The notes: generated by a model not told the origin, from the letters alone. A DNA stretch of 32,000 nt from Candidatus Baldrarchaeota archaeon (GCA_019056805.1 DXJG01000012.1:1-32000), one strand, 5' to 3'. Counted from the stretch's first letter, positions 253 through 27,396 are shown. Program-made: numbers and translations.

Positions 253-1845
253 TTAGTGCTTTTTAAGTTTTATACTGATTAATGCTACTGCTATTGCTAC
301 GACAATGACTATTGGGGCTATTTTCATAAATATGGGTGGTTCCTGCCCTCCGTGATCAAATGTTTCCTCCGTGCCAGTTTGTTCCTCGCCTCCAGTCTCT
401 TCTCCTGAGCTTGGAGATTCTTGGCCTCCTGTTTCCCCAGAAGATCCTTCTATTTCTATTATAGTGTTGTTCTCAACGACGATGTTTTTGACGTTATCTT
501 TTTCTATTTTTATCCATTCTCTTCCAGTTTCAACGTAGATCGTGTTATCTATTATTGTTATGTTTTCGGTGTATCCTCCCACATTGGGGTCCACACCAAG
601 ATAAATAGTGCAGTTTTTCAGAATGTTTGCTCTAATTACGATGTTTTTACTTTGCATAACTGGTAATTCAAGGTTTTCAAAATAGTTGTTTTCAACTGTT
701 ACCCCGTCAGTAGAAAGCAATAAAACACCTGCCTGATCTACGCGTGAAACGCCATTTGCATCAAACATCGGAACGCCCGTATAAATGAAACTGTTTCCTT
801 CAACAACCACATTTGCAGTTTGACCTCCAGTTTCAACTTTTACACCTATGAAACAGTCCTTGAAAGTGTTATTTCTCACAACAACTGAGTTAGAATATAT
901 TTCTACAGCTTCCCATAGCCCAATGAAACTATTATTAACAATTGTAATGTTGTACGTATAGGCTGCCGCTTGAAGCTCTGTGCCCTCTAAAATTTCCGTA
1001 TTATGGAAGATATTGTCAACAATCATAATATTACCACTATTCTCATACATTGCTAAAATTTTACCAGCATTCACAATCTCATTACCCTTCACAATAACGC
1101 TTCCGGTACCCATTAGGCAAATGGCCTCTAGAAAACAGTTATAAAACTCAAGTGCCTCAACTGGAATACTAATTTTGTTATTTACGATTTTAATGTCCAC
1201 ACAACTCGTTATCTCTAATATACGTGTCTGAGTAGGTCCACTTCCAGATTCAGACTGATAAAAGAAGTTTATTTCGCTGTCTACTATTGTAATGTTTTTG
1301 GAACAAGATATTCGAAAGTTATTTGACACTGTGATATTTAAATTAGACAGGTATAGATCGTCAATACCGCTCTGCAGATCTAAGTCTCCAATATCAGCAC
1401 CCGAGAAAACACCTGCTTGAAACCCTTCAACATAAAGTTTTCCGCTACTTCCCTTAAAAAGCAATCCTGCAACTGATCCTTCTGGACCTTCGACCGTTAC
1501 ATTTTTTATGTAAACTGTTCCGCCCTCGATATATATGAAATCAACCGGGTTGGAAAGCATTATTTTGCAATTCATTAGTTTAAGTATTCCATACACTTCG
1601 AACATAGGAGAGTCTAATGAATCGTATTGAATTACAGTATTATTACGTTCAAAGGTTTCTCCAGGATTAACTGTAACCTTGTTAGTTAAAGTTTCCTTAC
1701 TATTCAATGTAGCCGTGAAATCTAGGACTTGTATTCCATGTGCTTCCTCTATCTTAATTATGTTGTTTTCCAACCCTATATTTACTGTCAAAAACGTTAA
1801 GATAAACAATATTAATAGAAGTTTTATTAAATTTGGTTTATTCAT
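253..1845 (-). CDS. Secreted, C-terminally membrane-anchored right-handed parallel beta-helix (NosD/CASH/pectate-lyase-like) protein
   Basis: 530 aa. N-terminal signal peptide (MNKPNLIKLLLILFILTFLTV), many I.I.NN.F/I beta-helix turns, acidic Gly-rich linker (GETGGQE...EETGGEE), then a TM helix and KLKKH tail. GAGGAGGT RBS upstream. Confidence 0.85.
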   Translation of the reverse strand: MNKPNLIKLLLILFILTFLTVNIGLENNIIKIEEAHGIQVLDFTATLNSKETLTNKVTVNPGETFERNNTVIQYDSLDSPMFEVYGILKLMNCKIMLSNPVDFIYIEGGTVYIKNVTVEGPEGSVAGLLFKGSSGKLYVEGFQAGVFSGADIGDLDLQSGIDDLYLSNLNITVSNNFRISCSKNITIVDSEINFFYQSESGSGPTQTRILEITSCVDIKIVNNKISIPVEALEFYNCFLEAICLMGTGSVIVKGNEIVNAGKILAMYENSGNIMIVDNIFHNTEILEGTELQAAAYTYNITIVNNSFIGLWEAVEIYSNSVVVRNNTFKDCFIGVKVETGGQTANVVVEGNSFIYTGVPMFDANGVSRVDQAGVLLLSTDGVTVENNYFENLELPVMQSKNIVIRANILKNCTIYLGVDPNVGGYTENITIIDNTIYVETGREWIKIEKDNVKNIVVENNTIIEIEGSSGETGGQESPSSGEETGGEEQTGTEETFDHGGQEPPIFMKIAPIVIVVAIAVALISIKLKKH

Positions 1846-1928: not shown

Positions 1929-4900
1929 TCACAGTGTTTTTCGCCTTTTGATGATGAATATTATTGCTGCAATTGCCACTATGGAGACGGAAGCACCAAC
2001 GAGGTAAAATATTAGATTTTCAGTCAAAGGCCTCGTTGGGGCTGATACTGTGTAGCTGTACAATGTACTGTTAGCCAAGTTTCCAAGGGTGTCGTTTGCA
2101 TATATCTTGTAGTAAACAGTTGTGTCCACGGGCATAGCTGGTATTGTAGCTTCATATAAGCCGCTTGTAGCGTTATAGTTCATAGAAATATTGTACCATG
2201 TTGATAGATCGGTTGAATAGCTTAAGATTGCGGAATCAACGCCACTTGGATCAGTTATATTTGCTGTAACTTTAACTGTGTCATCACTAGTTGGCTCTTG
2301 TGGACTGTGAGAAACGTCCGTTATTGTTGGGCCTCCCATGTCTAAATACTGCTCTTTGCTCAAGAAACTATTTCCATAGATGTCCTCAGCATAGACTTTG
2401 TAGCAAATTGTTGCTCCTTCTGGTTGTGGTGGAATTGTTGCATGATATAGGTGTGTTGAATCGTCGTACGTCATATTTACTATATTCCATGAGGAACCGT
2501 TTGAGTACATTAATTGAATCTTTGAAATTTGGCTCCAATCTGAGACTAAAGCATATATGTTAATTGCTTCCCCTTTAAGCCGTATTAGCGGTGTCCTTAA
2601 AACAATTGCTATGTGGGGTGGAACAGTATCATTTTTGTTCCAGTTTCCGTACATATCGGAGCAATAGACTGTAAAAGAAGCACCATCTAACCATTCGGAG
2701 GGAAGTGGGCTAAACCAGTGTTCCCAAGTGATAGAATTGTTTATCCATGCATCCCAACCAATTGGAGGGCCGTAATCAACTTCATCTGGTCCTATACATC
2801 CTTCTGAATAACCATTCCAACCGTATTCTCCGTTTTCAATACTTATTTTTGGGCCTAGTATGCTGACTATAGCTAAGAGCCCTAAATTTTCTTTCCAGTT
2901 AGTGGACGCCAAATAGTTTTCATCCCAAGCAAAAAATTCAACGCATACTTGTGCTGTGCCAGATGTTTCATTTCTTATTATTGTTATATTAGTTATCTGA
3001 ACAAGAGGGCCGCTGATATCCTGGATTAAAGATATTTCAGCAGGTTCTTCTAACGGGTAAAGATCATAAATAAGATTGCCAGAGGAGTTTACCACAAGGT
3101 AGCTACCGCTACCATCGTAGTCGCTCCAATAGTTACCTGTTTGATTGCCTTTAAACTTTGATGCATATGAGATTAGGTAAAATCTAGGTGGGTTTTTGCC
3201 GCATTTTACATGAACGGTATTGTTTATGAAGTTATTTTGATAAATGTATGCTTTAGTATTGTCTATGTACATGCCGACATCATTGTATTCTATGGTGTTA
3301 TTTGCAATTCTGAAGTATTCGTTCCAGTCTGCATGTGTGTCTATGTGTAAACCATATGTGTTGTTGTAAATTTTGTTCCCCAGAACTACTCCTGGAAACT
3401 CCATTCTCTCCGCTATAGGTTCTAGGTGTAGCCATCTCAAAATGCCCATGTATATGATGTGATATAGCTTTATTCCAATGTACGTATTATTGTACACCTC
3501 GTTGCTGAGCAAAGTTACTAGTGGACAATCTTCTATGTAAACTCCTATTCGACTTGAATGTATGATGCTGTTATGTATCTTTATCATGCTTCGATAAGCA
3601 AATATGTTAGCAACTGCCGCACCGCTACATGTAACTCCAGTAATTGTTACAAAACTGGTATCTATAACTATTATGTTAAAGAATTTGTTATTAGATATGT
3701 AACTGTTGCAGATATCGATTTTTGTTGCGCCTCGATCCGGCACTTTGCCTTTGCCGAAATATATTTTGGGTAATGTTTTTATAAGTTCGCCGAAATCGTA
3801 GAAATCTAGTGCTGTAGATCCTTCTACACATACACCTATACTGTTATTCTCAACAGTATTGTTGTAGAAAACTATGTACGACGAGTTTGCAAGAGCAACA
3901 CCTATACTATTACTGCTAAAAATGTTATTTGCTATAACTGCGTAAGGTGCTTCAATCAATAGAATCCCATAATCGTAGTTATCGTGAATCTTACTGTTTA
4001 ATATTACAGCGTCCTGTGCTTCTATACATATTCCACCTCTATCTAATGGTCCAAATAAACCGGCACCGGAAATTTCAGAATTATCTATGTAGATGTGCGA
4101 TCCTCGTCTCGCCACAATGTAATAGCTCCCAGTTTCCTTTGATATTTTAGAGTTTATTATAGTTAATGAACCACCTGGTAAAACTTCTATTTTAATTGGT
4201 TTTACTTCGCCGCGAATTACGATTTGTGAATTTATGATTTCCAGGCTTGAATTTACAATTATGCTTCTATTTAAGATCATAGTTTCATCGCGGAAAATCG
4301 TAGGTTCGTTTATTATTAAGGGTTCGTAATATTCAAAGTGTGGTCTGACCTCAATAACTGTTAAAATTGAAACCTTGGGAATTGTGATCGATACGGTATC
4401 TCCGTTTACGGTGTATGGGACTTCTACTCCCTCCGGATAATCCTCACTATACACCCACACGGACAGTTGCTTATCTTTAAGTTGCGGAGGTAGTTTGAGG
4501 CTAAAGCTGACATTGTAGGCTCTGATGACTTTATCTGCTTCGAAGTCATAGTTAAAGTTTATAATTTGGAAAATCAGACAGTTTTCATCGTAGTTGAAGA
4601 ATCTGTAAATGTGAGCTCTCGTTGATAGGTCGGTTTGAACTTCTCGAGGCACATAAGTGTCTATAATGTTTTTGAAGGTTTCCAAAATGGAGTTAGCAGT
4701 ATCATCGTAGAGTGTTCTTAAAAGCAAGTAGTCACTTGGTGAAACATTTTTGATTGATACAATTAAACCATTACCGTACTCGTGAACATCGCCATCAAAT
4801 AGAGCTGCAAAGTCTCTACTTACTGGTTCTCCATACTCGTTATGCGTAGCGATTTCCCCTATTCCAATGATTATTCCACCGTTTTCAAGATAGTTTTTAA

Positions 4901-6509
4901 GCAGTTCTACTTGGTCATCTGTAAGACACACTGCATTAGATAGGACAATTGCCTTGTATTTTAGTAACCTAGATAGGGGAGGAGTCATATTTACCCAAAT
5001 GTTGTCTCCAAGCACAACAATGTCGAAAGTTCTATGGGAATCGGCCAGTAAGTAGTATGCGCCCTCGTAAGCATCGAAACTGTCCCCGAAAACCGAGGTA
5101 AGGTTTAGTTTCTTTATGTTGATGGCGGTCGCAACAGGATAGATTAATGCGATTTCACCGAATTGGCTTTGCCCAAATAAATGTGGATTTTCTTGAACCA
5201 GTCTGATAAACTGTGCAAAGTGGGTTTGATTGGTGCCTCCACTTAATGGAATACGGCCACTACAAACAATTATTTCTGCGAGACCTAAGTATTGTTCTTC
5301 TGGATCTGCACTTTTATTCCACCCGTTAATGAACCATTCAGTAAATCCTGTGGATTCCAATGAGCTCCATGGATAAATCCACGGATTAAAAGTTTTGTTT
5401 AAACTTTGAACTATTCTAAAATCTTTACTTGCAGTTCGATTAGGATAGTTAACCCAGCAATATTCCCAGTTCATTCCATCAACGTATTGGAGAACGAAAA
5501 TATCGTTTTCCTCTGTGCCAAGTCCTGGATTGAAATGTTGATGTCCAAATCTCGTGGAAATGTAGAAGTCTCTTCCAGTTTCTTCTTCCCATTCTTTAAC
5601 ACTTTCCCATAGCAATTTGTAAAGTTCTAGAACCATTTTCAATCTGAATTCTTCAAACTCTTTCCAGAGTGCTTTAACATATTCATTGTCCTGTGGACCC
5701 TCAATTCCAGGATGCGCAATTACTGATTCTTCAAAAATCATTGTATGGTTTTGATAGCCTAGATCTATGAGATACTGTGTAAAGTTAAACGAGCTTATGT
5801 CTGTTATGTTGAACTTTTCTTGTAATTCGGTGGCATTATATTTTGAGGCGAGATATTCATTGAATTTTTGCATTGTTTCTGGATCGAAGCTCCCTATGTT
5901 TTTGAATCCATCTCCACCGTCAAATTCTACGCCATCGATGCCAGCGTCGAAAAGAAACTTCATATAGTTTATGAAGAAGTTGCGCCATGCTTCTCGTCCT
6001 TCGTAGCCAATGCGTCCGGGTAAACTTACGAAGTACGTTCCGTTAAGATCCATGGGAGCTATGTCTTCCTTAGATAAATTGTAGTATTCCATGAAGTTTT
6101 CGTATTCGCTTAAGCTGCTAAAAGGCTTATATATTACGATTTTTATGCCCTTTGCATGTAGTTCTGCAATCCTTGTTTCAACTTGATCGAGTTCATATGG
6201 GAAGTCAAGATGGTATACATCACCTACACAAGTGACTCTAAATGGATAAGAAGCGAAATATCCGGCTCCGATGAATTCAATTGGGTAAAATCTTGAGCTG
6301 TAAAGATAATTTCGCTCGACGCTTACGTCGAGGATCAACGAATTCTTTGTTAAAAAATGCTGGTAATGCCACGGTGAAACGTCGTTTAAAAAAATTTTTT
6401 GAATGTAAGGAGTATTGACGTAGAGAGAGTATGAAATTGCTGGTAGAGAAAGTGTTATGATAAACAATAGGGTAAATAATTTAAGGATAGTAACGATGCC
6501 TTTTTTCAT
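1929..6509 (-). CDS. Large secreted membrane-anchored protein: glycoside-hydrolase-like TIM barrel + GH42-trimerisation/GATase1-like domain + beta-sandwich + parallel beta-helix + two Ig-like domains + TM anchor
   Basis: 1526 aa with a signal peptide. LHAKGIKIVIY and AGIDGVEFDGG barrel strands. FNEYLASKY insertion resembling GH42. EIALIYP...YKAIVLSNAVCLTDDQVELLKNYLENGGIIIGIG trimerisation-like motif. NosD-like NN.I..N..GI repeats. TM helix plus KRRKTL tail. Many N-x-S/T sequons. GAGGGT RBS upstream. Confidence 0.85.
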   Translation of the reverse strand: MKKGIVTILKLFTLLFIITLSLPAISYSLYVNTPYIQKIFLNDVSPWHYQHFLTKNSLILDVSVERNYLYSSRFYPIEFIGAGYFASYPFRVTCVGDVYHLDFPYELDQVETRIAELHAKGIKIVIYKPFSSLSEYENFMEYYNLSKEDIAPMDLNGTYFVSLPGRIGYEGREAWRNFFINYMKFLFDAGIDGVEFDGGDGFKNIGSFDPETMQKFNEYLASKYNATELQEKFNITDISSFNFTQYLIDLGYQNHTMIFEESVIAHPGIEGPQDNEYVKALWKEFEEFRLKMVLELYKLLWESVKEWEEETGRDFYISTRFGHQHFNPGLGTEENDIFVLQYVDGMNWEYCWVNYPNRTASKDFRIVQSLNKTFNPWIYPWSSLESTGFTEWFINGWNKSADPEEQYLGLAEIIVCSGRIPLSGGTNQTHFAQFIRLVQENPHLFGQSQFGEIALIYPVATAINIKKLNLTSVFGDSFDAYEGAYYLLADSHRTFDIVVLGDNIWVNMTPPLSRLLKYKAIVLSNAVCLTDDQVELLKNYLENGGIIIGIGEIATHNEYGEPVSRDFAALFDGDVHEYGNGLIVSIKNVSPSDYLLLRTLYDDTANSILETFKNIIDTYVPREVQTDLSTRAHIYRFFNYDENCLIFQIINFNYDFEADKVIRAYNVSFSLKLPPQLKDKQLSVWVYSEDYPEGVEVPYTVNGDTVSITIPKVSILTVIEVRPHFEYYEPLIINEPTIFRDETMILNRSIIVNSSLEIINSQIVIRGEVKPIKIEVLPGGSLTIINSKISKETGSYYIVARRGSHIYIDNSEISGAGLFGPLDRGGICIEAQDAVILNSKIHDNYDYGILLIEAPYAVIANNIFSSNSIGVALANSSYIVFYNNTVENNSIGVCVEGSTALDFYDFGELIKTLPKIYFGKGKVPDRGATKIDICNSYISNNKFFNIIVIDTSFVTITGVTCSGAAVANIFAYRSMIKIHNSIIHSSRIGVYIEDCPLVTLLSNEVYNNTYIGIKLYHIIYMGILRWLHLEPIAERMEFPGVVLGNKIYNNTYGLHIDTHADWNEYFRIANNTIEYNDVGMYIDNTKAYIYQNNFINNTVHVKCGKNPPRFYLISYASKFKGNQTGNYWSDYDGSGSYLVVNSSGNLIYDLYPLEEPAEISLIQDISGPLVQITNITIIRNETSGTAQVCVEFFAWDENYLASTNWKENLGLLAIVSILGPKISIENGEYGWNGYSEGCIGPDEVDYGPPIGWDAWINNSITWEHWFSPLPSEWLDGASFTVYCSDMYGNWNKNDTVPPHIAIVLRTPLIRLKGEAINIYALVSDWSQISKIQLMYSNGSSWNIVNMTYDDSTHLYHATIPPQPEGATICYKVYAEDIYGNSFLSKEQYLDMGGPTITDVSHSPQEPTSDDTVKVTANITDPSGVDSAILSYSTDLSTWYNISMNYNATSGLYEATIPAMPVDTTVYYKIYANDTLGNLANSTLYSYTVSAPTRPLTENLIFYLVGASVSIVAIAAIIFIIKRRKTL

Positions 6510-11226: not shown

Positions 11227-14200
11227 ATGCGTAAAAAAGTTTTTTTAAAAGCTTTGATCTTATTATGCATTTTCATGGTAGTGACTATTAATTTGCCTAT
11301 CACATGGCAAGAATCAACAATAACCACAGCTACTTCTATAAAGAACCTGCCGGAAAAGCATACAACCAATAACTACATCCATCAAGGAAACAGTATTTCC
11401 CTAAAAACTAGTCAAATAAGTAACTTAGAATCTCTCACCATATACGATGAAATTTCTGGGAGAGACATTAGGGCATATGCTTTCGATTTACAGCAGTGCG
11501 ATGTAATACAAGCAAACTTTTCTGAAACACTAATAGAATTAAAATTCAAAGTAATAGATCCATTAGGAAACGAGTTGAGACACGCATATGTGGATTATAA
11601 CACAATAATATTCGTAGCATGGACAACTGGTAGATACGTGTTACAAGTATCAAACCCGGAACCAACAACAGCAATATTCAACGCAACAGTTTACAAATTA
11701 ACTGCAATAGAAACAACAACAGGAACAGTAAGCCAAACATTATCACCAGGGGAATACACGGGATACTATGTAAATTTCAACGGAACAAGCCAAGCATCAA
11801 CGTCACTAACGGGAACAGTAGGAACAGACTACAACCTATATATATTCGATTCAAACGGAAACCTACACGCATATAGTGAAAGAACAGAGTACCCAGACGA
11901 GGTAGACTTCGCCATACTATACCCAGAACTATACTACATCGTAGTGTACGCAAAAAGAAGCGGTGACGATGGAACCATGGGACTAAACATAATAGCAACA
12001 GACCCATACCTACTTGAAATCGGTACAACAGCAACAGAGCAAATAACAAACCCAACATCAACCATAATATATAAGATAACTACAACAAATGATTCAATAT
12101 ACAAGATAAATCTAACAACGCCGGACAGCTACATAAACAAGACAGTAATCGATGATGATCTGGAAGGCGATGTATCAGAATGGGAGATAGATGGAAACTG
12201 GACACTGATTGATTCGGATTACCATAGCGCAACATATTGTTGGAATGTTAATGAAACCGGGCAATCAATGCTAATTACACCAGTAATCGATTTAACAGCA
12301 GCAAAAAAGGGAACAGCAAAACTAGTATTTTGGCAGAAACAAGAAATATATGACGGTAGCTACTATGTGGATGTGTCCTCTGATGGTAAGGTAACTTGGA
12401 ACACGATCCTAACAATAAGTTATAACTCTTCTACGTGGGAGAAAAAGGAAATCGATATATCAAATTACATTGGGGAGCGAATACAATTACGATTCAGATA
12501 TAATGGAAGTTCATCAACCAGTTACTGGAAAATAGATGATATATGTGCAATAATGACCTATGGAACAACAATAATGAAAATATATAATGCTACACTAGCA
12601 TTAAAGTACACAGTAGATAACGAATATTCTAGCGCCTCACTTACGAGTTATATAAAACGCTTCGTATCACCAGCAAATGAAACATATTACTTGTTATTTT
12701 CAGTAACAAATGCAACAAGCTACACATTAACAGTAACGATTCCTGTGGAAGTAGAAATAAGAGAAAAAGGATTCTACTGGTGCGATTATGGCTATTGGAA
12801 GTGGTTTGCACTAAAAATGCCTAAGGAAACCACAACAAAGATATACAAGAAGCATTATACTAAAATTTATATTTACGACGAAGATCTGAATCTTCTTGTA
12901 ACCGCAGGATACGGAGAAATGGATATTAATAATATCACAGTACATAAAGATACGTACATATTACTAAAATTATATAGCCCAAGTTCTGATTATATCCGGG
13001 TTTTCACACCTTCAGAAGTTTCTTTCGTATCTCCTGGTACCTACGCACGTACAATTACTATAGAGGGTGCTGATTACGGTTTTTACATGAATGCGAGTGT
13101 TGGGGAACAAATTAGGTTAACTTTAACGGGTCCTGCTGGAACAGATGCTAATATATATGTATACTATGAAGGGGAGATATTAGCTAGAACTAAATCTACG
13201 TCGTATCCGGACAGAGTTATTTTCGCTGCTGTTCGATCTGGATTATATTTTGTTAAAGTTCGTAGCATATTGGGGAATGGTTCATTTACGGTTACGTATG
13301 CTAAGGAAGCAGTACCAGTTTTATTAGAACCTGAGACATCGCTTTCGGAGGAACTAGCGGGCTATGTTGGGTTTGCTGGATATAAGTTTCCATCTGATGG
13401 ATATCATTTTGTTCATCTTACTTTGAATTCCACAACAACATCCGATCTTATCATTAATGTGTATGATCCATATGGTTCACACCTATTAGTGCATAGATCG
13501 TTGGCTAATTATCCAGCTGAAGTATCGTTTAATACTGTTATGGACGGAGATTACATTATATTAATATCGTCGAAAACTGGTTATTTAGCAAACTATACAC
13601 TAATCTTCGAGGGAACAAGTAACTATGAGGTTTTTCCGGGAGCATATTCTGGATCTATAGGGTCTAGTTCTAGTACGTCTTCTTTAAGGGCTTATGCTTT
13701 TCATGCACCTTTAGGAGCAATAATATCAGCAAAAATGGACGAAGATTCGGGAGCAGTTATATGGATTGAGGGGCTTGATCAGAGGGGTTTAGTAAAGGCA
13801 TGCAATAGGACAAATATTTACGTTGGGACGAGAACAATAAAATATGCATCTCCTATGAATGGAACCGCATTTATAGGACTAATAAATAAAGGTTTAAGCG
13901 GCTCCTATAACATAACAATAGGAGTTCAACTTGTTGTTTTAGTATTCGGTGAAAATTACGACTTTAGAAAGCCTATTATATCTGATATATCGTATATTCC
14001 CAAAATTCCTCTGCCTACCGACGAAGTAACCGTTAAAGCAGCTGTTGCCAGTTTATTAAACATTACAGTTTCTGTGCAATTACACTGGACGATAGATGAT
14101 ACAACTTGGTATATTCAAGAGATGGCACAGATTCAGGGGGGAGCTTATTACGAAACGAGTATTCCTCCTCAACCACTTTTCACTCAAGTAAAGTTTAAAA

Positions 14201-14904
14201 TTGTTGCAGAAGAAGCTGACGGTGATAAACAAGAAACAAAAATATATAGTTATACTGTGACAGAAACTGAGCCTCCCACAGTACAGATAATAAGTCCAGA
14301 AGACGGGTTATATGTAAACACCACGTTAATTAGTGTTGCTTGGTCTGCGTCGGATGAAATATCAGGGTTAGATAAGATAGAAATCTATGTGGATGGATCA
14401 CTAAACGCTACGTTTCAACCAGATCAGACATCGTATCTGTTAACCTTAGCAGAGGGAAGGCATGAAATTAAAGTTAAAGCGTATGATAAGGCGGGAAACG
14501 TAGCTGAGGATGTGGTCACGGTAACGGTAGACTTAACAGCCCCAACTATACAGATCACGAATCCAGAAGATGGAGCTACGCTATCTGGTGAGAGTGTTGT
14601 CGTTTCTTGGAGTGCTAGCGATAATTTTGGTATCAGAGAATTTCAAATTTATGCTGATGACTCATTAATTGCTACCTTAGATGGCAGCGCTAGTTCTATT
14701 ACTTTAGCTTTTGGTACAGGCTCTCATACTATTCGTGTTGTCGCTATTGACCATGCAGGTAACTCCGCATACGATGAAATAACCATTACAGTACCCTCCA
14801 CTGCTCCTAGTACAGGAGGACTCAAAACTATTCATATCATTGGTGCAGCAGTAGTTACAGTCGCTGTTATCGGTGCAATATTTTACTTCAGAGAGCGACA
14901 TTAG
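11227..14904 (+). CDS. Secreted membrane-anchored surface protein: about 7 PPC-like beta-sandwich repeats, an inserted MAM/cleaved-adhesin-like jelly roll, and three Ig-like domains
   Basis: 1225 aa with a signal peptide. Repeated LTG..GTD.N.Y.Y...G......YP..V.F.....G.Y...V motifs. DDLEG..W...W...LITPVIDL...L.FW...WNTI...IDIS.Y.G..IQLRFRY...W.IDDI module. Two PTVQI.SPEDG...V.W.ASD...G Ig repeats. C-terminal TM plus FRERH. Confidence 0.85.
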   Translation: MRKKVFLKALILLCIFMVVTINLPITWQESTITTATSIKNLPEKHTTNNYIHQGNSISLKTSQISNLESLTIYDEISGRDIRAYAFDLQQCDVIQANFSETLIELKFKVIDPLGNELRHAYVDYNTIIFVAWTTGRYVLQVSNPEPTTAIFNATVYKLTAIETTTGTVSQTLSPGEYTGYYVNFNGTSQASTSLTGTVGTDYNLYIFDSNGNLHAYSERTEYPDEVDFAILYPELYYIVVYAKRSGDDGTMGLNIIATDPYLLEIGTTATEQITNPTSTIIYKITTTNDSIYKINLTTPDSYINKTVIDDDLEGDVSEWEIDGNWTLIDSDYHSATYCWNVNETGQSMLITPVIDLTAAKKGTAKLVFWQKQEIYDGSYYVDVSSDGKVTWNTILTISYNSSTWEKKEIDISNYIGERIQLRFRYNGSSSTSYWKIDDICAIMTYGTTIMKIYNATLALKYTVDNEYSSASLTSYIKRFVSPANETYYLLFSVTNATSYTLTVTIPVEVEIREKGFYWCDYGYWKWFALKMPKETTTKIYKKHYTKIYIYDEDLNLLVTAGYGEMDINNITVHKDTYILLKLYSPSSDYIRVFTPSEVSFVSPGTYARTITIEGADYGFYMNASVGEQIRLTLTGPAGTDANIYVYYEGEILARTKSTSYPDRVIFAAVRSGLYFVKVRSILGNGSFTVTYAKEAVPVLLEPETSLSEELAGYVGFAGYKFPSDGYHFVHLTLNSTTTSDLIINVYDPYGSHLLVHRSLANYPAEVSFNTVMDGDYIILISSKTGYLANYTLIFEGTSNYEVFPGAYSGSIGSSSSTSSLRAYAFHAPLGAIISAKMDEDSGAVIWIEGLDQRGLVKACNRTNIYVGTRTIKYASPMNGTAFIGLINKGLSGSYNITIGVQLVVLVFGENYDFRKPIISDISYIPKIPLPTDEVTVKAAVASLLNITVSVQLHWTIDDTTWYIQEMAQIQGGAYYETSIPPQPLFTQVKFKIVAEEADGDKQETKIYSYTVTETEPPTVQIISPEDGLYVNTTLISVAWSASDEISGLDKIEIYVDGSLNATFQPDQTSYLLTLAEGRHEIKVKAYDKAGNVAEDVVTVTVDLTAPTIQITNPEDGATLSGESVVVSWSASDNFGIREFQIYADDSLIATLDGSASSITLAFGTGSHTIRVVAIDHAGNSAYDEITITVPSTAPSTGGLKTIHIIGAAVVTVAVIGAIFYFRERH

Positions 14905-22989: not shown

Positions 22990-23241
22990 GTAAACATCTA
23001 CATTTCATCCTGTCCCTAGCAAAATCTTTAGTCTTCTTCTGAGTTTCTATACGTCGATGCTAAATTTGTATATTTTTCTAGAACAAGGTTTGACAATTTT
23101 TCTATTAACTTCATTTATATTTTCTTTGGCAATTTATTCCAAACAAAAGACTTAAAAAGTTGTAGCATATATTACAATTAATAGTTTTTTCCAAAAGCGC
23201 CTAGAAGTTGCGTATCCTCCATAATATTGGAGGTTCGCAAG

Positions 23242-26200
23242 TTGCGTGTGGGCGCGAAACTATTAAGGTTTGTTTTTATCTTCTCGCTTATTGCTACATT
23301 ATGTGTATGTGATGTTATGCTCCCATTCAGTGCTCTTAGCAATTCTCATGAAACATTATCTCCATCAAGTGTTAGATATCCGTTTTCAGTAGATATAGGT
23401 CCAATCTATGAAGATAACAGACTAGTTGCATATGTACTTTACCCCATTCGCCAAGTCTACGTCGTTGACGTTTATAAAGTAGAGCTTCCCGATGAATTGA
23501 ATAAAACGAGTATCAGGGTTGGATATCTAAACAGTATGGGTATTGAACATTTAGATTATTGGAATGGTATAGATGGAATAGGATGGGAAGCAGAACTGAC
23601 TAGGTTTGAAGAGTTCATGAAATACTTTAACATAACTGCCGATAAAGATGGCAGAATAAATCTTGCTGGAGAACCCATATACCATGAGTTCTATGAAAGA
23701 AATCTTCTAGAAGTGCATTTCGCTAGGAAACACTGGCAAAATGTGCTTATAGAAATCTTGAAGATGATGTTTGATTCTGGAATGGCTGGGGTAGAGTTTG
23801 ATGGAGGTATCGGAGCGTATTCAGCGAGTGGGGGCTTCTTTACATTTGACAACGAAACCATGGAAGGTTTCAATGAATATTTAGCTTCTAAATATTCTGA
23901 AGAGGAATTAAGAACGCTTTTTGGCATAGAAAATATCGAGACATTCAACTTTAGGGAATATCTAAATAATCTTGGATATTATGATGATTCAACTATTAGT
24001 CCTGATGGGAGTGAAATTACAGATCCCAAAGCTAGGGCTCTTTGGAGAGAACTGGCATTATACCATTTAACATGCTTGGTTGATTTCTACAAAAAAATCA
24101 GAGAAAACATAGATGCTTGGGAGAATAAAAGTGGAAGAGATTTTATAGTGTTGATTAATGCGCCTACACTTCACTATAAAACCTGCTGGGGTTTGCCAAT
24201 AAATATCTTAGCTGTTCTTCAATACGTAGATGGGCTTAGCTACGAAGTGGATTGGAGAAGTGAGGGAAATGCTTATCCAAATATGACTTTGGCTCCTGAT
24301 TTTAGGATAGTAACCAGCTTAAGCAAGATGATAAGAAGTTGGACTCTTCCAACTTCAGGATTATCACCTGAATGGGCATTAAAATGTATTCCATTAGATT
24401 TTATTGCAGCAGCTGAACTCATAGCTGTCAGTGCTAAGGAAACAAACCCGCAACTTCCAGTATTGATTGATATAGATGACCTAAAACGTTTAGAAGATTT
24501 CAGCTTTCTAATTCAGAAGAACCCGCAACTTTACGATCAAGAAGATTATGGACAAATAGCTTTAATATATCCTATGGCCTCTGCCTGGTACTCGGAAGAA
24601 CCTCCTACAGCCGTGATACCTGTTGATCGTTATATTAGTTATGAGGGAGCTTATTATCTCTTAGCTGATGCACATTATCCAATAGACGTCGTGGTTTTTG
24701 GCGATAACATATGGTTTAATAGGACCCCCTCCTTAGGTGAATTGTTAAAGTATAAGGCTATAGTGTTAGCTAATGCAACTCATTTAACAGATGATCAAGT
24801 TGAGCTTATAATAGACTATGTAGAGAGCGGCGGAATTCTTATTGCTATAGGAGAACTGGGGGTTTATAATGAAACTGGAGCTAAGGTTAGTAGACCTGAG
24901 CTTTCATCTTTACTAGAAGGCACATATAGCACGATGCACGGTATAAATGTCTCCATACATAGTTATGGTAGTGGAACTGTTATTCACATCCCGGAAAACC
25001 TAGCTTGGGATTACTTCATGTATAGACTTTACTATGATCCAGATTCGAAGAATATTTTAAATGGGTTCAAGTCTATTTTGACATCTGTATTGCCTAGTGA
25101 AATCGAGACCAACTTAACAGATCGAACTCATATTATACGGTATAGGGGTAAAGAGGTTGAAAACCTCGTATTTTACATAGTCAATTATGAGTTTGATTTT
25201 GAGAAAAGGGAGTTAATTAAGCAATATAATGTTAGTTTTTCCTTTAAGCTACCGAGCTTCTTAGCTGAAAGAGAAATTCAAGTGAAAGTATATTCAGAAG
25301 AGAACACGGATGGCGAACTTGTTAATTTTGAAAAAGATGGCGATTGGATTCATATTTCATTGTCAGAAGTTCCTGTGTTGACAATTGTTGAAGTAAGACC
25401 CTATAAACCAAAAGATGAAACGACCGTGATATCTGAACCAACTACTCTTGAAAGTGAAACATTAATTTTGTCTGGAGATCTAGTAATCTCTTCAGATCTA
25501 GTTTTAAGGGATTCAAGGATCGTTGTGAATGCTTCAAGTTGGGAACCTATCTCTATTAGAGTTCTTCCGGGCGGTTCTCTTACGATGATTAATTCTGTCA
25601 TAGACAAAGAAGCGGGAAACTATTTTGTAGTCGTAGAGAAAGGTGCTAAACTTTACATGAGAAACTCTGAGGTTAGTGGAGCTGGAGTATGGGGAACTCT
25701 AGATCGAAGTGGATTTGTAGTGTTTGCTGACGACGTCGTAGTAACGGGCTGCAGCTTTCACAATAGCTTCGACGCTGGTCTCCTACTTTATAACGTTACT
25801 TATGCGGTAGTCTCGAATAATACATTCCGTGATAATAGGATAGGTCTTTCAATAGTAATTGCAGGAATGGTCAACGCTATGGGAAATAAGTATGTAAACA
25901 ACAGTATAGGTCTATATGCAACTGACATTATTAGACTTAAAATATCGGATAGCCTATTTTTGAATAATGGATTCCTAGGTATGGCTCTGAAGAGAGGCAA
26001 TTTCGAGATATTTAACACTACAGTTAAGGACTCGTTGCACCACGGCATTTATGTCAATTCGGGAACGATTAAAATATGTGAGTCAATAGTGGAGTCTAAT
26101 GAGGTTGGTATATTTGTCGACGGCTCTCCTTTAGCTATACTGTTAGGAAATAAGGTGTATAATAATACTAACATTGGCATATGGTTTAATCAGATAGTTT

Positions 26201-27396
26201 CACTAGGAAATTACCCATGGTTCTGGTATAACTTGAAACTTCCATCTCTACTATGTGAAGGATGTATTATCAACAATGAAATTACTGAAAATGGTATTGG
26301 GATTTTAGTTGAGAACAAAGAATACTACTTTAATGAATTTATACGTATAGCTAACAATACCATTAGCGGAAATCAGGTTGGAATATCGATTTCAAACTCT
26401 GTCGCAAAAATATATGCTAACAACTTTATAGGGAATGAAAAACATGTTGGTCAAGTAAGTGGACCTGTGGAGTTCTACTATGATTGGATTTTAGCGGGAG
26501 AAAGAATAGCCTTAAAGACTATTGGGAACTATTGGGATGACTATAGTGGGTCGGGTAATTATACGGTGACTTCAGAGTACGAAGATATTTATCCCCTCAG
26601 AGAACCTGCGGCAACTTCCTTTACCGGGGATGTAAATGAACCTATAGTTAAAATTTTAAATGTAAGTATTGTTTCTTCTTCTAATGGAATGGTTAAGGTA
26701 AAACTATATTTTGAGACTTGGGATGATACTCTTCTCAGCGGTGCACCGACACCTGATCTTTACTGCTACTTCGCTTTTGGCTCGTTTTGGAGTCCAAATA
26801 TAGAAATGGAGCATAACTGGATTGGAGTAAGCGGGGAGATATTGGCTCCAGAACTTAGTGGAAGGTCTCCTGAAGATGTTTTAAGCTATGTAATTGGGTC
26901 TTGGGTGGCAGAAGTAAATGAGTCCTGGCTGGAAAATATGAGCATAGCGATATATGTAAGTGATATGTATTGTAACTGGGCTCGAAACGACAGTATTAAG
27001 CCTCATGTAACGGTTGTTAGAAGGGATCCCGACGTTGTCTACGAGGCCGATGAAGTCACAATAGAGGCCGCAGTTTTCGATTGGAGCAGAATTGCAAACG
27101 TCACCTTAAGGTATTATGATGGAAGCTCTTTCAAAGAGGTGGTCATGAATTATGATCACCGAAGCGGACTATATGTTGCTAAAATACCTGCTTTGCAAGC
27201 AGGAAAACGCGTAGAATATCAGGTCATTGCTGAGGATATCTATGGAAATCTAGCTGAAAGCAATGTTTATTCGTACGAGGTTAAAGCTGTGGTTCCGCCA
27301 AGTGTAGAAATTCCCGTAGAGTACATAATTGGAGGAGTGGTAAGTGTGGTTGTGGTGGGGACAATAATAGTAATTATAATTCGACGTAGAAGATAG
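23242..27396 (+). CDS. Paralogue of 1929-6509: glycoside-hydrolase-like TIM barrel + trimerisation-like domain + beta-helix + one Ig-like domain + TM anchor
   Basis: Shared blocks: GVEFDGG, FD.ETM..FNEYLASKY, GQIALIYP, YEGAYYLLAD.H...D.VV.GDNIW, LLKYKAIVL.NA..LTDDQVEL, VLPGGSL, GNYW.DY.GSG.Y, Y.SDMY.NW..ND. GGAGGT RBS at 23229-23234 favours TTG 23242 over 23227. Ends in a TM helix plus RRRR. Confidence 0.85.
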   Translation: MRVGAKLLRFVFIFSLIATLCVCDVMLPFSALSNSHETLSPSSVRYPFSVDIGPIYEDNRLVAYVLYPIRQVYVVDVYKVELPDELNKTSIRVGYLNSMGIEHLDYWNGIDGIGWEAELTRFEEFMKYFNITADKDGRINLAGEPIYHEFYERNLLEVHFARKHWQNVLIEILKMMFDSGMAGVEFDGGIGAYSASGGFFTFDNETMEGFNEYLASKYSEEELRTLFGIENIETFNFREYLNNLGYYDDSTISPDGSEITDPKARALWRELALYHLTCLVDFYKKIRENIDAWENKSGRDFIVLINAPTLHYKTCWGLPINILAVLQYVDGLSYEVDWRSEGNAYPNMTLAPDFRIVTSLSKMIRSWTLPTSGLSPEWALKCIPLDFIAAAELIAVSAKETNPQLPVLIDIDDLKRLEDFSFLIQKNPQLYDQEDYGQIALIYPMASAWYSEEPPTAVIPVDRYISYEGAYYLLADAHYPIDVVVFGDNIWFNRTPSLGELLKYKAIVLANATHLTDDQVELIIDYVESGGILIAIGELGVYNETGAKVSRPELSSLLEGTYSTMHGINVSIHSYGSGTVIHIPENLAWDYFMYRLYYDPDSKNILNGFKSILTSVLPSEIETNLTDRTHIIRYRGKEVENLVFYIVNYEFDFEKRELIKQYNVSFSFKLPSFLAEREIQVKVYSEENTDGELVNFEKDGDWIHISLSEVPVLTIVEVRPYKPKDETTVISEPTTLESETLILSGDLVISSDLVLRDSRIVVNASSWEPISIRVLPGGSLTMINSVIDKEAGNYFVVVEKGAKLYMRNSEVSGAGVWGTLDRSGFVVFADDVVVTGCSFHNSFDAGLLLYNVTYAVVSNNTFRDNRIGLSIVIAGMVNAMGNKYVNNSIGLYATDIIRLKISDSLFLNNGFLGMALKRGNFEIFNTTVKDSLHHGIYVNSGTIKICESIVESNEVGIFVDGSPLAILLGNKVYNNTNIGIWFNQIVSLGNYPWFWYNLKLPSLLCEGCIINNEITENGIGILVENKEYYFNEFIRIANNTISGNQVGISISNSVAKIYANNFIGNEKHVGQVSGPVEFYYDWILAGERIALKTIGNYWDDYSGSGNYTVTSEYEDIYPLREPAATSFTGDVNEPIVKILNVSIVSSSNGMVKVKLYFETWDDTLLSGAPTPDLYCYFAFGSFWSPNIEMEHNWIGVSGEILAPELSGRSPEDVLSYVIGSWVAEVNESWLENMSIAIYVSDMYCNWARNDSIKPHVTVVRRDPDVVYEADEVTIEAAVFDWSRIANVTLRYYDGSSFKEVVMNYDHRSGLYVAKIPALQAGKRVEYQVIAEDIYGNLAESNVYSYEVKAVVPPSVEIPVEYIIGGVVSVVVVGTIIVIIIRRRR

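Follow-up and report, generated by a model that had tools for sequence, protein, structure and literature searches.

A candidate membrane-tethered relative of GH96 glycoside hydrolases fused to a parallel beta-helix in a Baldrarchaeota archaeon

The gene and its product

This study examined a 32,000-nucleotide stretch of DNA from a Candidatus Baldrarchaeota archaeon (GCA_019056805.1, DXJG01000012.1:1-32000), hereafter called the window, and in particular one very large gene on its minus strand (positions 1929-6509). In our reading, its product, P0001, which is a remote homologue of glycoside hydrolase (GH) family GH96, is probably an extracellular, membrane-tethered glycoside hydrolase with a GH96-like mechanism. 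The gene constitutes one uninterrupted open reading frame that begins with ATG, contains no internal stops, and encodes 1,526 amino acids (Table 1). In the public gene call (P0002, 1,469 amino acids), the start is set at a Leu codon 57 codons further downstream, so that the signal peptide is missing. Most full-length homologues carry an N-terminal hydrophobic segment and a C-terminal transmembrane helix with a Lys/Arg tail, and the recurrence of these hydrophobic ends argues for initiation at the ATG at 6509. Those homologues that have a name are called only "right-handed parallel beta-helix repeat-containing protein" or "hypothetical", which leaves the glycosidase-like module invisible in current annotation.

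Comparison of P0001 with NCBIfam returned no match to archaeosortase-type C-terminal signals, including PGF-CTERM. The protein contains 36 N-x-S/T sequons, compared with the 14.5 expected from its composition, and none of them lies in the signal or anchor segments. This excess fits a predicted N-glycosylated ectodomain.

An initial annotation, made from the sequence alone, had described a signal peptide, a triose-phosphate isomerase (TIM)-type barrel, a GH42-type domain, a beta-helix, an immunoglobulin (Ig)-like stalk, and a transmembrane anchor in a single chain, and our analysis recovered the same order. The motifs that it had quoted were all found (KGIKIVIY, residues 120-127; FNEYLASKY, residues 216-224; VDGMNWEY, residues 343-350), and GIDGVEFDGG, residues 190-199, lies exactly where it had been placed, at window 5913-5942. 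The N-terminal region does model as a TIM barrel. The AlphaFold2 model of residues 62-725, computed with 29 homologues (predicted local distance difference test score, pLDDT, 85.7; predicted template modelling score, pTM, 0.89), comprises an eight-strand beta/alpha barrel (domain A), a Rossmann-like domain (domain B), and a beta-sandwich (domain C), and FNEYLASKY sits in a long helical insertion after barrel strand 4. In structure comparisons, each of these three domains could be superposed on GH96 and GH42 enzymes. Domain B superposes with domain B of GH42 and with a ThuA-like protein. The Pfam family GH42M (PF08532) falls below detection in P0001 and matches weakly in 26 of 38 relatives, and the label "trimerisation" for this domain denotes likeness to GH42 domain B alone.

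The model of the C-terminal part (residues 726-1495; pLDDT 87.8) contains the beta-helix followed by three beta-sandwich domains. The larger of these sandwiches (residues 1156-1297) had no Pfam matches. The other two, the Ig-like domains, are a tandem duplicate, being 34.5% identical to each other (E 7e-15), and Foldseek aligned this stalk with the BIg array of SiiE and with FN3 arrays. Pfam matches of P0001 to CBM56, Big_7, and TBK1_ULD (E 0.09-0.3) were rejected as noise.

Table 1. Features of the P0001 gene and of its paralogue in the window.
Feature	Position	Strand	Basis or remark
Whole gene, P0001	1929..6509	-	1,526 codons + stop
Signal peptide or N-terminal hydrophobic segment (residues 1-27)	6429..6509	-	Hydropathy peak at residues 3-25
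Domain A, (beta/alpha)8 barrel, GH96-like, putatively catalytic (residues ~79-445)	5175..6275	-	AlphaFold2 model, Foldseek, VIA-align, profile
Asp197 codon (end of strand beta4), candidate catalytic residue	5919..5921	-	Equivalent to Cm-AGA D994
Glu349 codon (after strand beta6), candidate catalytic residue	5463..5465	-	Equivalent to Cm-AGA E1129
Domain B, GH42 "trimerisation"-type / class-I glutamine-amidotransferase-like fold (residues 446-621)	4647..5174	-	Model
Domain C, beta-sandwich (residues 622-725)	4335..4646	-	Model; like C-terminal domains of GH42, GH96, and GH66
Right-handed parallel beta-helix, NosD/CASH type (residues 726-1155)	3045..4334	-	Pfam, model, VIA
Larger beta-sandwich (residues 1156-1297)	2619..3044	-	Model secondary structure
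Two tandem Ig-like domains, stalk (residues 1298-1393 and 1394-1490)	2040..2618	-	Model
Linker, transmembrane helix (residues ~1498-1520), and basic cytoplasmic tail KRRKTL	1932..2039	-	Hydropathy
Paralogue, 1,389 amino acids, same architecture	23227..27396	+	N-terminal module 41% identical; Asp and Glu kept

Relationship of the N-terminal module to GH96

GH96 has to date been a small, purely bacterial family of alpha-agarases, the structure of which became public only in 2026. When the N-terminal module of P0001 was compared with the PDB by using Foldseek, the top match was the GH96 alpha-agarase Cm-AGA of Catenovulum maritimum (9m0b, released in March 2026; E 5e-22), followed by GH42 enzymes and then by GH151, the archaeal GH35 enzyme GlmA, and GH164. 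VIA-align superposed the module on 9m0b over 531 residues with a Z of 24.3 and a root-mean-square deviation of 4.2. The corresponding Z was 18.5 for GH151, approximately 17 for GH42, and 17.2 for a GH66 cycloisomaltooligosaccharide glucanotransferase (CITase), for which barrel and sandwich only were aligned, so that 9m0b leads these three families by approximately 6 Z units. An exhaustive structure search independent of Foldseek again placed 9m0b at the top (Z 22.4) and scored GH191 at 11.7, PelA at 10.5, and Ega3 at 10.4.

Sequence profiles also detected this homology. A profile of the close family matched 9m0b with E 1.5e-8 over approximately 72 residues in the FNEYLASKY/ITDISTF segment, and a 38-member family profile matched it with E 1.1e-42 over the barrel and domain B. 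The latter profile additionally matched the C-terminal sandwiches of 9m0b and of GH66 CITases at E ~1e-6 and the GH42 enzyme 3tts at E 3e-14 across the barrel and domain B. Cm-AGA and P0001 thus share a three-domain module of barrel, GH42-type domain B, and beta-sandwich, and GH96 enzymes and P0001 both have, after strand beta4, the motif F-x-x-[YW]-L-x-x-K-Y followed by I-x-D-I-[ST]-x-F. The remainder of the chain differs: the GH96 enzymes lack the beta-helix, Ig-like stalk, and transmembrane anchor of P0001, and, unlike it, they are bacterial, secreted proteins with CBM6/CBM2 and TSP3 modules (PMC10740060). In our literature searches, we found no paper linking GH96 to a wider family and no open paper describing the 9m0b structure.

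The GH42 enzymes 3tts and 1kwg, along with GH151, GH164, and GH35 GlmA, have the same A/B/C layout as P0001 (Z 16.5-18.5, approximately 500-535 residues aligned), and the segment FRVWLKERY of 3tts, with the common motif F-R-x-W-L-x-x-R-Y, is the counterpart of FNEYLASKY. However, the nucleophile of GH42 is a Glu on strand 7, whereas the conserved Glu of the P0001 family is on strand 6. The nucleophile segment of 3tts, M-L-M-E-Q, aligns with N-P-W-I-Y-P-W in P0001, which contains no carboxylate, and the nucleophile site (position 377) is occupied by W, L, M, V, or Y across the P0001 family. The Pfam model of GH42 (PF02449, Glyco_hydro_42) matched neither P0001 nor any of the 38 family members. 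Membership in GH42 was rejected because the strand-7 nucleophile is absent; without a carboxylate at that position, the module is GH42-shaped but not GH42 in mechanism.

The initial annotation had likened the acidic pair to that of GH114/GH166-type barrels. GH114 Ega3, GH166 PelA, and GH66 do resemble P0001 in having a barrel with a candidate Asp on beta4 and a candidate Glu on beta6, but they lack the GH42-type domain B and are far weaker matches than GH96. The likeness to Ega3 and PelA is at most one of fold; the 224 of 251 residues of Ega3 (6oj1) that aligned did so at a score typical of a common TIM-barrel match. The GH114 model of Pfam (PF03537) matched only three of the 38 members, weakly (16.7-18.4 bits against a cut-off of 27), and all weak Pfam matches to GH114 and GH66, found in a few members, were below the curated cut-offs. 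Matches to an "AI-designed TIM barrel" in the profile searches reflected a generic beta-alpha unit only and were discarded.

In GH66 enzymes, the acidic pair consists of an Asp on strand beta4 and a Glu on strand beta6. With this pair, with CITases among the better structural matches (Z 17.0-17.2), and with a family profile that recognizes the CITase C-terminal sandwich, the barrel could be thought to act mainly as a transglycosylase or cyclising enzyme in the manner of GH66 CITases. However, 367-377 residues align with GH66 compared with 531 with 9m0b, and the closest relative, GH96, is a hydrolase. We consider this as the main activity improbable.

Candidate catalytic residues

The Asp of EFDGG and the Glu of WEY, proposed as catalytic candidates in the initial annotation, remain the best candidates for that role. 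In the profile alignment, D197 corresponds to chain position 323 of 9m0b and E349 to position 458; the chain index plus 671 gives the Cm-AGA numbering, and the part of the entry that VIA aligned is numbered 840-1441. The two positions are therefore Asp994 and Glu1129. In the strand order of the model, D197 lies at the end of strand 4 and E349 comes after strand 6.

Both equivalents are essential in GH96. All eight substitutions of Asp994 and Glu1129 abolish the activity of Cm-AGA, for which the authors proposed a general-acid/general-base scheme, yet with a modelled carboxylate distance of 5.79 A (PMC11311870). In AgaB, the variants D333N and E468Q are inactive, and D333/E468 are the same pair with the same 135-residue spacing (PMC10740060). 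In the P0001 family, D197 was invariant in all 28 homologues that cover it, including both paralogues described in a later section, and was kept in 123 of 126 distant relatives; E349 was invariant in 29 of 29 close homologues and kept in 117 of the 126. GH96, GH66, and other barrels that act on alpha-glycans use this Asp(beta4)/Glu(beta6) arrangement. We infer hydrolytic activity and a preference for alpha-linkages.

The layout of a beta-helix, an Ig-like stalk, and a transmembrane anchor is common among adhesins, and SiiE-like and PfbA-like matches were obtained, which would suit a non-enzymatic adhesin or envelope component whose barrel merely binds glycans. We regard this explanation as very improbable, because the two residues essential in GH96 are near-universal in the three paralogues and in more than 100 distant relatives, a retention that is hard to explain without catalysis.

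A further acidic position, E/D412, was kept in 117 of 126 sequences across the wide family.

The beta-helix

The beta-helix was identified by the Pfam models PF13229 (Beta_helix; E 1.6e-23, 83.5 bits against a cut-off of 25.9) and PF05048 (NosD; E 1.3e-22, 80.8 bits against a cut-off of 23.6). Its VIA scores for AlgG (Z 21.1), AlgE4 (20.8), a phage tailspike (20.8), and NosD (20.4) are tied within 1 unit and do not discriminate among these proteins, the best being polysaccharide-active helices (AlgG, AlgE4, and phage tailspikes). A NosD function was rejected because TIGR04247 scored 56.1 bits against a cut-off of 300 and the generic beta-helix repeat alone is shared.

Most invariant positions of the beta-helix are Asn and Gly residues that belong to the repeat ladder. 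Conserved clusters of acidic or basic residues were not seen in it, and only H842, Y796, K977, and W1026 stand out. We read this domain as a glycan-binding or spacer element with a presumably non-catalytic role.

A large family and its archaeal fusion

To the extent that the initial annotation presented the putatively catalytic module as an orphan invention, this view was not sustained; the module is shared by a large family of mostly bacterial and unannotated proteins. An exhaustive HMMER scan of 1.84 billion representatives retrieved 1,759 clusters (at 50% identity) with E<=1e-3, 597 with E<=1e-10, and 155 with E<=1e-30. Many members are stand-alone proteins of approximately 650-790 amino acids, and those that we looked up were named "hypothetical protein" or carried no name. 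Pfam searches of family members returned nothing for the barrel and a weak GH42M match alone for domain B. The ESM-Atlas neighbours were bacterial clusters automatically named "hypothetical" or "alpha-amylase family protein", some of them labelled GHL6, GHL10, or GH42M, from Planctomycetota, Acidobacteriota, Lentisphaerota, Latescibacterota, and Verrucomicrobiota. Through these results, a set of approximately 1,759 clusters whose members are called "hypothetical" or "alpha-amylase family", and for whose barrel Pfam has no model, is linked to GH96 and given a specific candidate catalytic pair, so that ideas about their function can be tested. Predicted surface enzymes from Asgard and Thermoproteota archaea belong to this set.

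The fusion is far more restricted than the module. A beta-helix of the P0001 type was present only in the closest clade and in six of the 149 more distant representatives scanned (P0030-P0037); the other distant representatives had FN3, InlB-repeat, or type IX secretion system (T9SS) tails or no tail. The fused form occurs in archaeal metagenome-assembled genomes (MAGs) named as Promethearchaeati, Odin-, Baldr-, and Njordarchaeota, Culexmicrobium, Methanomethylicota, and "Nitrososphaeria/Thermoproteales". The fusion of beta-helix, Ig-like stalk, and transmembrane anchor is thus a small archaeal speciality of Asgard and Thermoproteota MAGs. The novelty that the initial annotation had claimed for the architecture stands in part: no characterised example of the barrel/beta-helix/stalk/anchor combination was found, but what is unusual is limited to the archaeal fusion. 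Several of the MAGs with the fused form have isolate labels containing "Guay", "GB", or "GBS", which we take to denote the Guaymas Basin, and many carriers would appear to be organisms of hydrothermal sediment.

Among 40 relatives of this genome, the family was confined to its own genus (two of three genomes) and was not found in the 37 genomes of 17 other families of the phylum. Yet members occur across several Asgard classes and in Culexarchaeia, Methanomethylicia, and further Thermoproteota MAGs, and this patchy distribution suggests lateral exchange.

The 1.9-Mb genome itself contains three paralogues, two in the window (1929-6509 and 23227-27396) and one on contig 15 (L003 1462-5019), the N-terminal module of which is 38% identical to that of P0001. 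The three are 38-41% identical to each other, and all of them keep D197 and E349. A Baldrarchaeota MAG likewise has three copies, with identities of 60, 39, and 38% (L008, L016, and L020). The similar three-copy patterns suggest an old triplication into three subtypes. In a genome of the same genus, one copy (G001:C303:4698-6552) is spread over two frames and interrupted by in-frame TGA and TAG codons, one of each, which may reflect pseudogenization or a faulty assembly.

A bolder proposal is that the archaeal clade constitutes a new GH family, a sister of GH96 with a GH42-shaped Asp(beta4)/Glu(beta6) module, that its beta-helix is a second active domain of the lyase or epimerase type, and that the gene is traded horizontally. 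If this were true, the protein would hold two tools, a barrel that cuts one linkage in a complex polysaccharide, which might be sulfated or contain amino sugars, and an AlgG- or tailspike-like helix; with the gene traded among Asgard and Thermoproteota archaea of hydrothermal sediments, archaea poor in carbohydrate-active enzymes would attack polymers at their own surface. We judge this proposal, taken as a whole, to be quite unlikely.

Proposed role at the cell surface

On the basis of the module, the acidic pair, and the protein ends, P0001 would be an enzyme outside the cell that carries many N-glycans and is held on the archaeal membrane by its C-terminal helix. The three-domain N-terminal module would most likely cleave or transfer a glycosidic bond in a polysaccharide outside the cell, with Asp197, which closes strand 4, and Glu349, which follows strand 6, as the likely catalytic pair. 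The beta-helix probably grips the polymer, and the Ig-like stalk would keep the enzyme at a distance from the membrane. A fusion of this kind, with beta-helix, Ig-like stalk, and anchor, shows how archaea, which have no outer membrane, could keep such an enzyme at the cell surface, and it bears on the extracellular-glycan interactions of little-studied sediment archaea.

The bacterial relatives point to a degradative use of the module. P0038 is located between a GH78 rhamnosidase and a GH31 enzyme, and the neighbours of P0045 are a sulfatase and a PL9-type beta-helix; a T9SS sorting domain is present in P0042 and a dockerin in P0039. Dockerins were observed in further relatives, including P0029 (879 amino acids), and P0039 adjoins an S8 peptidase that also has a dockerin (L028). 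This hints at cellulosome-like display of the family in some organisms.

The same chemistry could serve another purpose, namely the trimming or remodelling of the cell's own surface glycans or exopolysaccharide (EPS), as performed by Ega3, PelA, and PgaB in biofilm formers. Action on exopolysaccharide or N-glycans, which the initial annotation had suggested, would be one option. The enzyme would be permanently tethered to the cell, its gene has giant surface proteins rather than sugar-uptake genes as neighbours, and the genome looks glycosidase-poor. The barrel also superposes on Ega3, PelA, PgaB, and the GH191 alpha-galactosaminidase (Z 10.3-11.7), and its four to five conserved active-site acids would conceivably suit a cationic amino-sugar polymer. 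However, no glycosyltransferase or EPS export genes lie beside the archaeal copies inspected, and the bacterial relatives examined either belong to degradative gene clusters or have T9SS or dockerin tags for export. The genomic contexts of these relatives led us to rank degradation or harvesting slightly above trimming of the cell's own glycans, which we hold to be a serious but rather unlikely alternative.

Several observations weigh against the reading of P0001 as a GH96-like hydrolase. A phmmer search with P0001 alone against solved structures returned nothing at E<=1, and the identity between P0001 and 9m0b is just 11-15%. The only assayed members of the wider family are the GH96 alpha-agarases, and agarose is no evident substrate for this archaeon. 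In addition, D188 (kept in 113 of 126) and D344 (120 of 126) are conserved here, whereas Cm-AGA has Lys and Thr at these positions, which indicates that the active site, and probably the substrate, differ from those of alpha-agarase. D188, D344, and E/D412 may determine specificity or bind metal and may thus mark out the non-agarase members, which form the majority of the family. Moreover, sugar transporter or catabolic genes were not seen near the archaeal loci inspected, and neither GH13 nor GH31 was found in this genome (91% complete). One SBP_bac_8 protein is present in the genome.

Gene neighbourhood

Near the archaeal genes lie genes for other giant surface proteins (in the window, 253-1845 and 11227-14904) and unrelated metabolic genes. 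Very large surface proteins were observed near GH96-like genes at window 11227-14904 on the plus strand, L006 2129-6427, and L005 8089-13452, and these neighbours carry Big_7/Glucodextran_B Ig arrays, an FG-GAP beta-propeller, or TSP3/PKD repeats. Their recurrence suggests surface-protein islands.

The gene directly downstream of that of P0001, at window 253-1845 on the minus strand, is separated from it by 83 nucleotides and was not conserved beside the homologues at the other loci inspected. The two genes may be co-transcribed. The downstream gene encodes a second surface protein with a parallel beta-helix; this product, of 530 amino acids, also has a signal peptide, an acidic linker rich in Gly, Glu, and Thr, and a transmembrane anchor with a KLKKH tail.

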